A DNA stretch of 64,000 nt, from contig PKTK01000013.1 of the NCBI GenBank assembly GCA_002869165.1, positions 50,124 to 114,123 of the forward strand, given 5' to 3'. Origin of the DNA: Candidatus Parcubacteria bacterium. GTDB taxonomy: Bacteria; Patescibacteriota; Patescibacteriia; Patescibacteriales; UBA12075. Positions 3,845 to 38,480 of the stretch are shown one piece after another. The notes beneath the pieces were generated by a model that saw only the letters and a program-made list of their open reading frames with translations, made no database searches and was not told where the DNA came from. Both the position numbers and the translations under genes were made by a program. The stretch's first letter is position 1. Each line of letters opens with the position of its first letter.

Positions 3845-3918
3845 GGATGCATAGCTCAGTTGGCTAGAGCACCTCGTTTACACCGAGGGGGTCCGGGGTT
3901 CGAGTCCCTGTGCATCCA
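3845..3918 (+). tRNA. tRNA-Val (anticodon TAC)
   Basis: Acceptor stem GGATGCA/TGCATCC. D-arm GCTC...GAGC. The anticodon loop is TTTACAC in stem CCTCG/CGAGG. The T-arm is CGGGG-TTCGAGT-CCCTG. CCA is not encoded. Confidence 0.85.
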
Positions 3919-3929
3919 CAACTAAAAAG

Positions 3930-3955
3930 CTACACCGGAAGGTGTAGTTTTTTTG
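3930..3955 (+). terminator. Intrinsic terminator after tRNA-Val
   Basis: Stem CTACACC-GGAA-GGTGTAG followed by T7. Confidence 0.7.
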
Positions 3956-3982
3956 TTGCGGATGCATTGGGAAATCGAACCC
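3955..3982 (-). repeat. Inverted degenerate copy of the tRNA-Val 3' half
   Basis: The reverse complement, GGTTCGATTTCCCAATGCATCCGCAAC, compares with the tRNA 3' end GGTTCGAGTCCCTGTGCATCCACAAC. Confidence 0.7.
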
Positions 3983-4074
3983 CGGATTTGGATGGATCAA
4001 AAGAAGTTCAAAGTTAGTGGCTTGAAAGAAATAACATAAACTACATAATAAACGTATTCGACTGAAGTCGGTGA

Positions 4075-4095
4075 GAGTCCCTGTGCATCCACAAC
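4075..4095 (+). repeat. Direct 21-nt copy of the tRNA-Val 3' end (att-like)
   Basis: GAGTCCCTGTGCATCCACAAC is identical to 3902-3922. The identity starts inside the T-loop. Confidence 0.8.
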
Positions 4096-4099
4096 AAAA

Positions 4100-4130
4100 A
4101 GAACACTCTGAAAAAAGGGTGTTCTTTTTA
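4100..4130 (+). terminator. Intrinsic terminator-like hairpin after the tRNA-Val 3' copy
   Basis: Stem AGAACAC...GTGTTCT followed by TTTTTA. Confidence 0.55.
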
Positions 4131-6540: not shown

Positions 6541-6738
6541 ATGTTATATAATTTTGCAATAGTTATTATAATTATTGGCATATCAAGCTATATTTACAAC
6601 TTAAAAAATAAGCATTATTACGATGAGGAAAATTGCAGTACCTTCAGGTTTGCTTCAGTGATAATTACTGAAATTGCATGGAAGCTTTGTTTGCTTGGTC
6701 TTTTTGTTTGTTTAATCTTTGCTAGTTTTTATAGGTGA
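6541..6738 (+). CDS. Small two-TM membrane protein
   Basis: A GGAG Shine-Dalgarno sequence precedes the start. The 65-aa product has two hydrophobic helices. Confidence 0.4.
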   Translation: MLYNFAIVIIIIGISSYIYNLKNKHYYDEENCSTFRFASVIITEIAWKLCLLGLFVCLIFASFYR

Positions 6739-6741
6739 GAC

Positions 6742-7134
6742 ATGACTAGAAATATCAATAATTCAACAATTGTAAATTGTTTTGAAGCAGCTAGAAGCTT
6801 GCGTGAATACTTGGTTTATGAGGAATATAATGTTTTCTCATTCCAAGCAGAAACCCAACACAAAAAGCACGAGCCTTTTATAGTAATAAATCTACCGTTT
6901 ATGTGTATATTGGATAACTTGCCGGTAAACTGGGATGGTTTTCATGTAAAATATATATTTTGTGAAGACCCTGAACATCAAATCAACGAATATACGATTA
7001 TTACTTCTACCAAAAAAAATCAAGCTGACAAACTACATCTTAATTTGGAGGATTTTGAAAAAGTTAAAACAATTCAAGAAAAATCTGTCAAAATACTATC
7101 AAGTATAGAAAAAAGTTACCGATTTATAAACTAA
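6742..7134 (+). CDS. Hypothetical protein
   Basis: It is coupled to 6541-6738 by a 3-nt gap and a terminator follows. I recognised no motif. Confidence 0.45.
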   Translation: MTRNINNSTIVNCFEAARSLREYLVYEEYNVFSFQAETQHKKHEPFIVINLPFMCILDNLPVNWDGFHVKYIFCEDPEHQINEYTIITSTKKNQADKLHLNLEDFEKVKTIQEKSVKILSSIEKSYRFIN

Positions 7135-9092: not shown

Positions 9093-9400
9093 TTAAGTCT
9101 ACACTAATGTAGACTTAAGTCTAAATCTTCAACAAACATATCCCCATTTTTTATGCTTTATCCACATATTAGTGTTGATAAGTCCACAATATTGTGGACT
9201 TAAATCTATTACTTATTTTAAACTGTTTAATTTTCCTCAATTTTCTTTCTATTTTAAGTCTACGCTAGCGTGGACTTAAATTAACTATTTTCTAAACAAC
9301 ATCCACGTTATATCATTAATACATTAATAAAAGGAATTGAAAGATAAAAAAACCATTATAAAATATACCCCAACTTAAGTCTATAATAGCGTGGACTTAA
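9093..9400. repeat. Cluster of four 26-bp palindromes, consensus TTAAGTCYAC-N6-GTRGACTTAA
   Basis: Copies lie at 9093-9118 (perfect), 9178-9203, 9254-9279 and 9375-9400. A fifth copy is at 36543-36568. The spacing is irregular (85, 76 and 121 bp). Confidence 0.8.
9158..9166 (+). promoter_or_regulatory. Perfect DnaA-box consensus TTATCCACA
   Basis: This is an exact 9-mer. Nearby degenerate boxes include TTATACACA (9081-9089) and AGTCCACA/TGTGGACT inside palindrome 2. Function is unproven. Confidence 0.35.
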
Positions 9401-9413
9401 ATTTTGACTTTCT

Positions 9414-9439
9414 AGATTCCTGCTTCCATAGGAATGACA
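9414..9439. repeat. Family A short hairpin unit
   Basis: AGATTCCTGCTTCCATAGGAATGACA. Confidence 0.55.
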
Positions 9440-9484
9440 AAAAAAGGAGTAAGGAATAACAGAGGTAGAAGTATTGTTTTGTGA

Positions 9485-9552
9485 AGGCGGCCACTTGCAG
9501 TGACCTACTCTACCTCACGTTCAAGAGATTCCTCGTTTCACTCGGAATGACA
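9485..9552. repeat. Family A long-form unit
   Basis: GGCGGCCACTTGCAGTGACCTACTCTACCTCACGTTCAAGAGATTCCTCGTTTCACTCGGAATGACA is collinear with 52214-52281. Confidence 0.7.
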
Positions 9553-9617
9553 AAAAAATAAGGTCTGGACCGCCCAGTCATCTGACTGGGCAAGGATTCT
9601 TACATTATTAAGTGATA

Positions 9618-9666
9618 TTTGAGGTCTGGACCGGATTCGAAGAGGCGGAAGCCTCACACCCTCAAG
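9618..9666 (-). repeat. Direct copy of the tRNA-Cys 3' end, fused to a 19-nt arm shared with the tRNA-Lys locus
   Basis: Positions 9618-9641 are identical to 9791-9814 (tRNA-Cys T-loop to 3' end plus flank). Positions 9633-9660 are the reverse complement of GGTGTGAGGCTTCCGCCTCTTCGAATCC, also found at 37532-37559 and 37710-37737. A shorter 12-nt copy is at 9561-9572. Confidence 0.8.
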
Positions 9667-9738
9667 AATTTTAATATGATCTTAAAAAATACTGTTTTAA
9701 CATTGGCATCATTTTTTTATCTATTTTTACATCTCAGG

Positions 9739-9762
9739 CACCGGTTCGAACCGATCCAGACT
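9739..9762 (+). repeat. Inverted degenerate copy of the tRNA-Cys 3' half
   Basis: CACCGGTTCGAACCGATCCAGACT compares with the tRNA sense sequence CACCGGTTCGAATCCGGTCCAGACC. Confidence 0.65.
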
Positions 9763-9786
9763 AAAAAAAGAACCCCATCTGGGGTT
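9763..9786 (-). terminator. Intrinsic terminator after tRNA-Cys
   Basis: The minus-strand sense reads AACCCC-AGAT-GGGGTT followed by CTTTTTTT. Confidence 0.7.
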
Positions 9787-9794
9787 ATTTTTTG

Positions 9795-9866
9795 AGGTCT
9801 GGACCGGATTCGAACCGGTGAATAACGGTTTTGCAAACCGTGGCCTTACCACTTGGCGACCAGACC
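9795..9866 (-). tRNA. tRNA-Cys (anticodon GCA)
   Basis: The reverse complement reads GGTCTGG..ACGGT-TTGCAAA-ACCGT..CCGGTTCGAATCCGG..CCAGACC-T. The cloverleaf is consistent. CCA is not encoded. Confidence 0.85.
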
Positions 9867-37237: not shown

Positions 37238-37318
37238 CATACTTAATTCGGATTTTTGATTGTGGATTGCGGAGCTACAAATTCCGAATTCCAAAATCAG
37301 AAGTCCGAATTTTGATAA

Positions 37319-37391
37319 GCGCCCATAGCTCAGTTGGTAGAGCAGTTGCCTCTTAAGCAAATGGTCGCAGGTTCGAATCCTGCTGGGCGCA
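37319..37391 (+). tRNA. tRNA-Lys (anticodon CTT)
   Basis: GCGCCCA..GCTC-AGTTGGTA-GAGC-A-GTTGC-CTCTTAA-GCAAA-TGGTC-GCAGG-TTCGAAT-CCTGC-TGGGCGC-A. Confidence 0.85.
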
Positions 37392-37785
37392 CAAAATAAA
37401 GCGCCGCCTGAATAGGGCGGTGTTTTATTTTGTGTGACTAGCAGATGAGAACCTGCTCTGAGGTGCAGGGGAAGAATAAAAGACAAGCTATTTGCAAAAA
37501 TATTATCAAAAACTAAACATGTTATTTTGATGGTGTGAGGCTTCCGCCTCTTCGAATCCTGCTGGGCGCACAAAATAAAAGACGTCTCGAAGAGGCGTTT
37601 TTTGTTTTGTGTGACTAGCAGATGAGAACCTGCTCTGAGGTACAGGGGAAGAATAAAAGACAAGTTATTTGCAAAAATATTATCAAAAAACTAAACATGT
37701 TATTTTGATGGTGTGAGGCTTCCGCCTCTTCGAATCCTGCTGGGCGCACAAAATAAAAGACGTCTCGAAGAGGCGTTTTTTGTAT
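37372..37785 (+). repeat. Tandem array of about 179-bp units, each beginning with the tRNA-Lys T-loop-to-3'-end segment (att-like)
   Basis: TTCGAATCCTGCTGGGCGCACAAAATAAA occurs at 37372, 37551 and 37729. The two intervening units are near-identical and end in GGTGTGAGGCTTCCGCCTC. Confidence 0.85.
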
Positions 37786-37799
37786 TTAAAAAAATTTTG

Positions 37800-37838
37800 C
37801 AAAAAAAAAGAAGGGCCGTACATTTTTGTACGACCCTT
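37800..37838 (-). terminator. Strong intrinsic terminator (minus strand)
   Basis: The minus-strand sense reads AGGGTCGTACA-AAAA-TGTACGGCCCT followed by TCTTTTTTTTT. Confidence 0.8.
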
Positions 37839-38408
37839 GCACCAGTTATGTTTTATGTTAGAGTCAGAGCATTTTACCTCCATTTTTCTGGGCAGATTCC
37901 AGGCGCTTTTCGTTTGGCCTGGATTGGATTTATGACATTTTTCTATGACCGCTGCAATGACCTCGTCTTATCGCGGCTCCCTGCTCCAATACCTCTATGG
38001 GTATGGGGGGGAGCAAGCGCATCATTTTTGACGTTCCAGTTCATCGCAGTACTTCCGAAATGGTGCCGAATTTACTTATCGACCGGTGACTTGAGATTTT
38101 CAAAGTTTTTAGATGGTCAGTCGCATCTGTTCTCCTCTTTCGCCGGAAGAATTGTGCCAGAGCAATTCGTTGCTCCCGAGCACAGGAATGAAAGATTACC
38201 GGGACTATCCAAGGTGCTGTATGGAGCAGTTCCATGACAGCGGGCTTAATCCAGTTCTTCTTCAGGTATTGTCTGCTTAAATCTTTACGGCGGGTCTTTG
38301 TTTGGCACGATTGCCTCTTTGTTGAGGTTAAGGTTTTTTGCGGTTTCTTTAAATGTACTTACATCTTTTTCTTATCGCGGCCCTCTTGGCCTGCATCGAT
38401 GCATAATT
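37803..38408 (-). ncRNA. Candidate large (about 600 nt) structured non-coding RNA of unknown class
   Basis: It is bounded by a canonical promoter and terminator. Two hand-counted 60-nt samples gave 45-52% G+C, against about 22% in a flanking sample. All frames are broken and no Shine-Dalgarno-led ORF exists. There are several 5-9-bp local hairpins. The class is not identifiable by eye. Confidence 0.45.
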
Positions 38409-38414
38409 GTTTTC

Positions 38415-38443
38415 ACTATATCATATATAAGTATATTTGTCAA
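38415..38443 (-). promoter_or_regulatory. Sigma-70-type promoter driving the candidate ncRNA
   Basis: The minus-strand sense reads TTGACA (38443-38438), a 17-nt spacer, then TATAGT (38420-38415). This is the same architecture as promoters upstream of several genes in this window. Confidence 0.6.
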
Positions 38444-38480
38444 GTATTTAATTTTTAAATTTAGGTTATTAGCTAAAATT

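Follow-up and report, generated by a model that had tools for sequence, protein, structure and literature searches.

Gene-less units built from tRNA 3' ends downstream of tRNA genes in a Candidatus Parcubacteria genome and other Patescibacteria

The 64-kb stretch of Candidatus Parcubacteria DNA analyzed here (the window; part of contig PKTK01000013.1), which appears to derive from a metagenome-assembled genome (MAG), carries an Arg-Met-Lys tRNA cluster whose last gene, tRNA-Lys(CTT), is followed by further copies of its own 3' end. A 29-mer that opens inside this gene, TTCGAATCCTGCTGGGCGCACAAAATAAA, was found by pattern search to match exactly at positions 37372, 37551, and 37729, and Tandem Repeats Finder (TRF) reports a tandem repeat at 37372-37783 with a period of 178, 2.3 copies, and 94% matches. 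The window holds no further match to the 29-mer when up to 3 mismatches are allowed, and 100 shuffles gave 0 matches. A previous inspection based on the letters of the DNA (the sequence-only reading) had described a triple 29-mer with a 179/178 period, which the exact search and TRF bear out. The Lys array is one example of a family of gene-less tRNA-end units that is widespread and, it appears, undescribed. A full-text literature search found no published account of such units in Patescibacteria; because the coverage of the search is incomplete, this is weak evidence of novelty.

The three copies delimit two units, A (37372-37550, 179 nucleotides [nt]) and B (37551-37728, 178 nt). In each unit (Table 1), a sense copy of the tRNA 3' end (S) is followed by a hairpin (T1), a degenerate antisense copy of the tRNA end (S'), a linker, and a conserved module whose second hairpin (hairpin 2) abuts the next S. 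The four-part anatomy given by the sequence-only reading (tRNA 3' segment, hairpin, inverted copy, and an arm abutting the next copy) was correct. Identity between the copies and the tRNA begins at T54, in the T-loop, because the 5' strand of the T-stem, GCAGG in the gene, is replaced by GCCTC at copies 2 and 3. In S'-A, changes from C to T preserve G·U pairing with S.

Alignment confirmed that the two units are nearly identical save for the hairpin after the tRNA end: they differ by a swapped hairpin top, three substitutions, and one extra A. The top reads GCGCCGCCTGAATAGGGCGGTG in unit A (37401-37422), a GC-rich sequence found in that unit only, and AGACGTCTCGAAGAGGCGT in unit B (37580-37598). 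The latter occurs again at 37758-37776, and S3 with the terminal hairpin repeats S2 and T1-B across 57 nt. Both units carry the arm ending in GGTGTGAGGCTTCCGCCTC (37525-37550 in A, 37703-37728 in B). GC-rich tops followed by T-runs are present at 37401-37431, 37580-37608, and 37758-37783, of which a terminator consensus scan recognized only T1-A, in its minus-strand reading. A CRISPR array was considered and rejected, since the two "spacers" are 96-99% identical outside the hairpin top; CRISPR-like, CRISPR-associated transposon (CAST), and TnpB guide-RNA systems were set aside by reasoning only (no effector gene, transposon ends, or unrelated spacers).

Table 1. Coordinates of the tRNA-Lys array and of the related units in the window
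Feature	Position	Strand	Content and basis
tRNA-Lys(CTT)	37319-37392	+	ARAGORN; Rfam tRNA, 75 bits; closes the Arg-Met-Lys cluster; final 21 nt open S1
S1, sense copy 1	37372-37400	+	T54 of the T-loop, acceptor 3' strand, discriminator, 8-nt trailer; exact pattern search
T1-A, long hairpin	37390-37434	+	CACAAAATAAA-GCGCCGCC..GGCGGTG-TTTTATTTTGTG; inverted repeat, folds
S'-A, degenerate antisense copy of acceptor 3' strand and T-arm	37432-37456	+	GTGTGACTAGCAGATGAGAACCTGC; inverted repeat
Unit A linker	37457-37524	+	A-rich, little conservation among loci; alignment, composition
Unit A conserved module	37525-37550	+	TTTTGATGGTGT and hairpin 2, GAGGC-TTCC-GCCTC (37537-37550); abuts S2
S2, sense copy 2	37551-37579	+	29-mer; pattern search
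T1-B, hairpin	37569-37611	+	Top AGACGTCTCGAAGAGGCGT (37580-37598); inverted repeat
S'-B, antisense copy of unit B	37609-37633	+	
Unit B conserved module	37703-37728	+	Hairpin 2 at 37715-37728
S3, sense copy 3	37729-37757	+	29-mer, array end; pattern search
Terminal hairpin B and T-run	37758-37785	+	Terminator-like array end
Unit after tRNA-Cys (9794-9866)	9618-9814	-	S1 9791-9814; T1 9763-9792; S' 9739-9762; hairpin 2 GAGGC-TTCC-GCCTC 9642-9655; S2 9618-9641
Unit after tRNA-Val (3845-3919)	3902-4129	+	S1 3902-3922; T1 3923-3955; S' 3957-3985; variant hairpin TCGAC-TGAA-GTCGG 4058-4071; S2 4075-4095; terminator 4096-4129

Units after other tRNA genes

When the arm and T-loop (GGGGCTTCCGCCCCTTCGAATCC) were searched for with up to 4 substitutions allowed, a third copy emerged in the window. 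It is located downstream of tRNA-Cys (minus strand), and the T-loop copy there continues as the 3' end of tRNA-Cys and not of tRNA-Lys. Hairpin 2 and its 3' junction are identical there to those of unit A, and the whole module differs at 4 of 26 positions. The Cys locus has an additional degenerate partial copy at 9561-9591, in which the hairpin GCCCAGTCAGATGACTGGGC is followed by GGTCCAGACCT. A further unit lies after tRNA-Val; the Cys and Val units each have a period of exactly 173 nt. Units thus occupy 3 of the 4 tRNA operon ends of the window, and the remaining one, at tRNA-Pro, has a terminator alone. The Lys, Cys, and Val units have the module in common and not the linker, and no S copy was found elsewhere in the window. 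Downstream of the Cys units, at about 9400-9550 in minus-strand reading, we also noted two copies of a short hairpin repeat, TTTTTTTGTCATTCC(N10-11)GGAATCT.

Scanning species-representative genomes with the tRNA-Lys core gave 48 loci, mostly titled Patescibacteria (Parcubacteria, Saccharibacteria, and related groups) and others otherwise labeled. A metagenome scan with the ungapped arm/T-loop junction gave 11 loci, and one with a pattern of the gapped core and GTGTGACTA gave 0 matches. About 25 further units were found in other Patescibacteria, after Lys, Ala, Glu, Arg, and Leu tRNAs and an intron-containing tRNA; the tRNA-Lys genes that bear them differ in their acceptor stems, of which there are several kinds. 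The order of parts is S, T1, S', linker, and a GC-rich hairpin 2 directly abutting the next S. S extends from T54 to 2-8 nt beyond the tRNA end. T1, a perfectly palindromic hairpin, has a different sequence in nearly every unit, and S' repeats the local tRNA's acceptor 3' strand and T-arm in degenerate antisense form. The linker between S' and hairpin 2 measures 10-100 nt, and the main type of hairpin 2 is GGGGC-TTCC-GCCCC, with GAGGC..GCCTC in the present genome. Periods are 106-113 nt in compact units and 173-188 nt in long units with an A-rich linker, or about 106-190 nt overall.

The combination of hairpin 2, T-loop, and local tRNA 3' end had 19 matches in the sequence examined, all downstream of a tRNA gene on the same strand except at locus L061, where only about 260 nt of contig precede the copy. 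The 64 kb of the window and about 450 kb of loci contained no orphan module, the sole match without a visible upstream tRNA being that of L061 at its contig start. We rejected miniature inverted-repeat transposable elements (MITEs) on this account and because the inverted segments, as copies of the local tRNA, differ at each locus. Among the loci examined, which were partly chosen for this feature, the gene's own 3' end is repeated directly within 450 nt for 28 of 126 tRNA genes; one of the 28 is an adjacent-sequence artefact, and a few may be neighboring tRNA genes. In three loci (L014, L030, and L057), tRNA-Lys is followed on the same strand by another tRNA gene, with the unit in between and presumably cotranscribed; the hairpins equivalent to T1 there, situated between two tRNA genes, are AT rich.

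Several individual loci deserve mention. At L060 (reverse complement, approximately 880-1215) and L052, the tRNA upstream of the unit has an anticodon-loop insertion of about 230 nt (GCACTCGTAGCTCAGTCGGATAGAGCAACGGCCTTT ... TAAGCCGTAGGCCGCAGGTTCGAATCCTGCCGAGTGCACCA), presumably an intron, which escaped both ARAGORN and the Rfam scan at gathering threshold; a transfer-messenger RNA (tmRNA) was considered at this position and rejected, the gene being an intron-containing tRNA. One Taylorbacteria MAG contributes L017 (approximately 640-900) and L038 (approximately 6720-7063), its two tRNA-Lys loci, with CTT and TTT isoacceptors. More than 200 bp after both tRNAs are identical and open with a TTT-type S copy, which at L017 matches the adjacent tRNA at 18 of 20 positions; this common sequence suggests exchange or movement between the two loci. 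At L058, a 325-amino-acid open reading frame (ORF) at 359-1333 on the minus strand, with weak matches to HTH_38 and rve (DDE integrase core) in an IS30-like arrangement, is inserted such that the downstream S copy is cut off after CCTGTTGGGC; the related L055 has two intact units.

Orthologous loci and strain variation

Orthologous Arg-Met-Lys loci, which lie beside RecQ and a methyltransferase, were reached via homologues of the methyltransferase. The comparison of unit number that the sequence-only reading had called for gave zero units at L008 and L072, one at L066 and L071, and one full plus one truncated unit at L069. The conserved module of unit A is retained in L066, L069, and L071. L066 (methyltransferase 71% identical in amino acid sequence) keeps the flank TTTGATGGTGT and has the hairpin GGGGC-TTTC-GCCCC, and L069 (60%) and L071 (62%) keep hairpin 2 without the TTTGATGGTGT flank. 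The tRNA-Lys genes of the window, L066, L069, and L071 differ from one another in T-loop, T-stem, and acceptor, and in all four the 21-22 nt compared are identical between the downstream copy and the local tRNA. A copy that tracks a diverged local tRNA in this way is not the fossil of a displaced tRNA end. Orthologous loci inherit the units vertically, and S and S' there follow the sequence of the local tRNA. In lineages with DnaB proteins of only 69-76% identity, too, a unit follows the tRNA-Lys gene that neighbors DnaB and/or a MiaB-like gene; these neighbors were recognized by N-terminal sequence only.

Three other assemblies that are 99.8-99.9% identical to the window (JGI 3300007102, ENA ERZ794999, and Logan) were found via exact protein matches. 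Where the window has one unit at tRNA-Val, one at tRNA-Cys, and two at tRNA-Lys (A and B), the JGI assembly has one, one, and one (A), and the ENA assembly has two, two, and one (B). The Logan contigs break within the repeats, one of them inside Lys copy 3. Copy number shifts between 1 and 2 by whole units at three tRNA loci, a pattern that an att-type element predicts and that homologous recombination or slippage would produce equally; the zero-unit state was seen in the distant orthologues L008 and L072 only. An array invariant among relatives, which the sequence-only reading associated with plain duplication, is not what these strains display, for counts differ between them at all three loci.

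The doubling at tRNA-Lys itself could stem from an assembler chaining A-type and B-type single-unit strains, an explanation that concerns this doubling only and that we consider unlikely. The apparent MAG origin of the window would permit it, as would the occurrence of A-only and B-only contigs in other samples and the Logan break in copy 3. The stretch common to the units, 57 nt as S plus hairpin B or 101 nt at 99% as module-S-hairpin B, is at least as long as typical metagenome k-mers. Independent arrays of at least two units nevertheless exist at L055, L038, L026, and L069 and at the ENA Val and Cys loci. The ENA duplicates are exact 173-nt tandems whose flanking repeat of 24-28 nt is too short for such chaining; since it is shorter than the usual final assembler k-mers, these tandem junctions are probably real. 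Moreover, the replaced hairpin makes the A-B difference far greater than the strain difference (0.1-0.2% genome divergence), which fits two old paralogous units, one of which was lost from each single-unit strain via recombination between S copies. The concern of the sequence-only reading about an assembly artefact applies to the A+B doubling, which the 57-nt common stretch makes less certain; tandem units as such are supported by the ENA Val and Cys duplicates and the arrays at other loci.

Short-read contigs tend to end in or near units: L003 ends at the position equivalent to window 37754, L065 starts at the Cys S copy, and L067 ends 189 nt past the methyltransferase. The units are a systematic cause of assembly breaks at tRNA loci in these genomes. 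In practice, they break or mis-chain MAG assemblies at such loci and risk being misannotated as pseudo-tRNAs or island boundaries.

Strand-specific pairing and candidate mechanisms

Measured against the perfect complement of S in 22 curated segments, S' carries T in place of C at 31 of 80 C positions and A in place of G at 2 of 104 G positions (Fisher P = 2.7e-11). Because of this bias, pairing is kept as G·U on the tRNA-sense strand only; the opposite strand would have A·C. The linkers beside S' are A rich on the same strand (A, 257; T, 181), which makes a plain C-to-T mutation bias on that strand unlikely. Sense folds are more stable than antisense folds in 20 of 25 units (mean, 8.3 kcal/mol; G·U pairs, 114 versus 46; P = 1.4e-4). 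A T-loop mismatch bubble recurs within the otherwise paired stem. T1, in turn, shows wholesale turnover: the hairpins of units A and B, and those of L014 and L030, are unalignable between flanks that are about 97-99% identical.

One alternative explanation of the array is a plain neutral tandem duplication of the tRNA 3' flank with neither function nor mobility. It would account for a 2.3-copy tandem repeat of 94% identity and is nonetheless very improbable, given that the same architecture and conserved hairpin recur at other tRNAs here and in many distant genomes, that retention at orthologous loci is concerted, and that substitution in S' is directional and preserves wobble pairing.

Hairpin 2 is nearly invariant. 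Its pair 2 is G-C in 13 cases, A-U in 2, C-G in 1, and G·U in 1, and the other four pairs show no covariation; the L071 hairpin, GGGGC/GCCTC, links GGGGC/GCCCC to the window's GAGGC/GCCTC as a G·U intermediate. The RNAalifold consensus of the compact units recovered hairpin 2 alone. Pairing in hairpin 1 and in the T-stem is inseparable by covariation because the strands copy each other, and a UUYGR:UCGAA helix present in approximately 10 of 18 units is not claimed. Rfam 15 returned tRNAs only, noise aside, for the locus (E ≤ 1), the whole window (gathering threshold), and eight related loci. No sigma-70-like promoter was found inside the units at the scan threshold, and the idea of a separately transcribed small RNA was therefore dropped.

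We favor, with a probability of roughly 0.4, a structured element of the tRNA operon trailer that is selected on the sense strand and whose repeated S copies drive expansion and contraction by whole units. The units would be part of the tRNA operon transcript and would be kept by selection on the folded sense strand. S' could pair alternatively with the tRNA's own 3' end, thereby extending T1, or with the downstream S, which would act as a cis decoy holding S' off the tRNA in a competition among three segments. S' and the downstream S would together form a pseudo acceptor/T helix with the conserved hairpin 2 as its cap. In predicted minimum-energy folds lacking the downstream copy, S' invades the tRNA 3' end; when the second copy is included, S' and the tRNA 5' strand are each contested by two identical S segments. 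The S copies (22-29 nt, or 57-101 nt with their flanks) also behave as recombination substrates. Unequal exchange or slippage between them would add or remove whole units and keep the copies identical to the tRNA by concerted evolution. The Lys A+B array would then be one state of that exchange, requiring neither an integrase nor a foreign element. We prefer an element constrained on the folded sense strand, in the simplest case as RNA, because of the conservation at orthologous loci, the local adaptation of S and S', the directional wobble pairing, and the positions between co-oriented tRNAs.

Several observations weigh against this trailer element. The orthologous loci with zero units indicate that units are dispensable; about 30% of the tRNA-Lys genes sampled by the core bear one, and several of these look decayed. 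The cloverleaf is not recovered in the predicted equilibrium fold of the entire precursor, so the decoy idea requires kinetics, cotranscriptional folding, or processing, and most transcripts may stop at T1, short of S'. The conservation of hairpin 2 extends to its sequence and is not merely structural, which suggests recognition by a protein, possibly a recombinase. The left edge at T54 and the right edge just beyond the tRNA end form the classical att pattern. S copies that mismatch the adjacent tRNA at L026, L055 (copy 3), and L017 look like movement or exchange between loci. Finally, a folded sense-strand DNA hairpin under selection, in which G·T is tolerated, would yield the same strand asymmetry.

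A broader proposal, which we regard as possible but short of probable, is a new class of tRNA-3'-end element propagated through a folded single strand, either as an RNA switch or as an integron-like system without ORFs. As an RNA switch, the wobble-paired antisense copy would toggle between the tRNA 3' end and the decoy copy and so control tRNA maturation. In the integron-like version, the site would be the folded sense-strand hairpin S-T1-S', docking at the tRNA T-arm. Both versions would account for the strand-specific G·U or G·T pairs, the hypervariable tops, the concerted evolution with the tRNA, and the unit-precise copy changes.

Taken alone, the integron-like version is quite improbable. 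By analogy, S-T1-S' would be an attC-like recombination site and the tRNA T-arm would act as attI; the T-stem would correspond to the R box, the T-loop bubble to the unpaired spacer, the acceptor to the L box, and T1 to the variable terminal structure. The one-strand pairing that tolerates G·T and the recurrent bubble in a paired stem agree with such a site, as do hypervariable tops between conserved flanks (A versus B; L014 versus L030) and tandem sites in the same orientation with short cassettes between them. Compared with the trailer element, it would explain the asymmetry equally well, and the T54 boundary, the heterologous S copies, and the sequence conservation of hairpin 2 better. Yet all of these parallels are structural analogies; we found no IntI-like or other recombinase and no GTTRRRY/RYYYAAC boxes, the cassettes lack ORFs, and the units are long conserved at orthologous loci.

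A more conventional alternative, miniature att-bounded cassettes, is rather unlikely but still a serious competitor. Here a tyrosine recombinase encoded elsewhere would insert and excise units at the T-loop, arrays would grow by accretion, and hairpin 2 would be a core or arm site. Known signs of tRNA-targeting elements include partial tRNA copies and tandem junctions (bioRxiv 10.1101/2020.12.28.424599). Identity edges at T54 and just beyond the tRNA 3' end fit this alternative, as do whole-unit copy changes at three loci, with two exact duplications in one strain, and the heterologous S copies already described. It is also in keeping with the near-invariant sequence of hairpin 2 among deep lineages and with its form, an inverted repeat around a 4-bp spacer.

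The search for a recombinase speaks the other way. No integrase was detected in the 64-kb window by Pfam scans of most larger ORFs and a motif screen for tyrosine recombinases, as the sequence-only reading had stated; the Pfam content of the window is housekeeping only (e.g., GyrA, FtsK, PolA, RecQ, SHMT, FTHFS, and MurD). Nor did the motif screen find a recombinase beside any of the approximately 25 units in other Patescibacteria. Exact matching against viral contigs returned 0 matches for the tRNA-Lys core, for the core plus S' pattern, and for the hairpin 2 junction, and blastn of 37395-38460 (the Lys units and downstream flank) against phage and plasmid collections gave no match.

The unit beside an integrase gene that the sequence-only reading proposed to look for was thus absent from the Patescibacteria unit loci, and the sole integrase-linked relative is L043, a 541-bp contig labeled as a Deltaproteobacteria MAG. 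In L043, the C terminus of a tyrosine recombinase (PF00589) lies beside the window's tRNA-Lys core, an arrangement that speaks for att cassettes. The core is followed by GTGTGACTA, the same degenerate 9-mer as in the window S'. Four GTGACTACA motifs flank a partial tRNA-Lys 3' half on both sides, and hairpin 2 is missing. A word-indexed protein search with the recombinase fragment returned only the fragment itself. From its sequence, L043 looks like an attP or att junction of an element targeting this tRNA-Lys; it shows this tRNA to be an integrase target in some relative, without connecting integrases to the units.

The remaining evidence against att cassettes comes from the units themselves. 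Movement between tRNAs would make chimeric tRNAs, whereas S and S' match the local Lys variants, Cys, Val, and Ala. The distal copy follows later tRNA changes at orthologous loci instead of preserving the older sequence, and the one-strand G·U pattern of S' is unexpected for a duplex att site. The Lys, Cys, and Val units of this one genome have the module alone in common, which leaves no room for a recent burst, and a double-stranded circle of 106-180 bp is an awkward intermediate. Of the att-type interpretation in the sequence-only reading, the T-loop boundary, the discrete gene-less tandem units, and their strain-variable number stand. No recombinase was found at the units, and the tRNA-tracking distal copy and the one-strand pairing of S' count against it. 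The data are consistent with recombination among the repeated tRNA ends; they do not amount to evidence of integrase-driven accretion of foreign elements in the manner of cis-mobilizable elements.

Each of the closest known systems has at least one defining feature that the units lack. Remnants of tRNA-targeting elements (cis-mobilizable elements and tycheposon islands; bioRxiv 10.1101/2020.12.28.424599) likewise have a direct repeat of the tRNA 3' end whose proximal copy completes the tRNA, a T-loop boundary, tandem stacking downstream, and strain-variable unit number. The units differ from them in being gene-less and 106-190 nt long, in having no integrase found at the window or unit loci, and in a distal copy that coevolves with the tRNA; they also have a locally adapted antisense copy and a conserved hairpin that abuts the copy at different tRNAs. 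Integron attC arrays resemble the units, in structure only, through imperfect palindromes in the same orientation with conserved outer arms, a bubble, and a hypervariable top, through strand-specific folding, and through a tandem layout with unit-wise gain and loss. Unlike attC arrays, the units have no R/L box consensus, IntI, or ORF cassettes, their arms copy the adjacent tRNA, and they persist for long periods at orthologous loci.

Pneumococcal BOX elements (with variable boxB number), Neisseria Correia elements, and REP/BIME sequences are dispersed at many unrelated sites and have fixed ends of their own. Like the units, they are short, gene-less, modular hairpins in transcribed intergenic DNA with strain-variable module number; the units, however, occur at tRNA 3' ends only and take both their sense and antisense ends from the local tRNA. 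The choice of S' between the tRNA 3' end and an identical downstream copy may recall trp-type attenuators and T-box antiterminator logic, but the units have no evident leader peptide, specifier, or regulated downstream gene and no known sensing input, and segment 1 lies within the mature tRNA. tRNA-like minihelices (e.g., mascRNA) are processed from longer transcripts, and bacterial tRNAs have 3' external transcribed spacers. The S':S helix, which lies in a tRNA trailer and has T-loop sequence, would mimic the neighboring tRNA's stacked acceptor and T stems. It differs in that the Rfam tRNA model has no match to the units, the helix is G·U rich, and hairpin 2 replaces the T-stem 5' strand; since the trailer of the units is also paired, there is no free NCCA-type end.

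Partial tRNA copies downstream of tRNA genes are routinely taken as integrase scars. Here, the same signature is inherited at orthologous loci, coevolves with the tRNA, is always joined by a wobble-compensated antisense copy and a near-invariant hairpin, and changes in copy number without a visible recombinase. The mechanism may be either a structured RNA trailer or a strand-specific recombination site. If the RNA interpretation is true, the units would add a hitherto unrecognized level to the organization of tRNA operons in a very large, little-studied radiation of minimal genomes; if the DNA interpretation is true, they would represent a new cassette system with tRNA genes as docking sites.

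Sequences flanking the array

Upstream of the array, the tRNA-Met/tRNA-Lys spacer (37245-37311) is filled by a 29-nt imperfect inverted repeat that is 83% complementary (AATTCGGATTTTTGAT... / ...TCCGAATT). The spacer has AATTCCG-like short repeats, and that of the orthologous locus L066 is unrelated.

Downstream, on the minus strand, a GC-rich segment at 37800-38443 (44-47% GC versus 34% in the window) contains no ORF longer than 66 amino acids. The segment is convergent to the tRNA array, and its signals are a near-consensus promoter at 38443-38415 (TTGACA-17-TATAGT plus an upstream TG) and, at 37838-37811, an intrinsic terminator; the corresponding 613-nt RNA has a folding z score of -3.45. 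The segment has no Rfam match at E ≤ 10, and the six frames of 37800-38460 have no Pfam match at E ≤ 10, on which ground a degraded integrase in this interval was rejected. It is 100% conserved in the three sister assemblies and missing from the orthologous locus L066. We regard it as a candidate lineage-specific noncoding RNA of about 600 nt, or else an unrecognizable gene remnant, inserted directly after the array.

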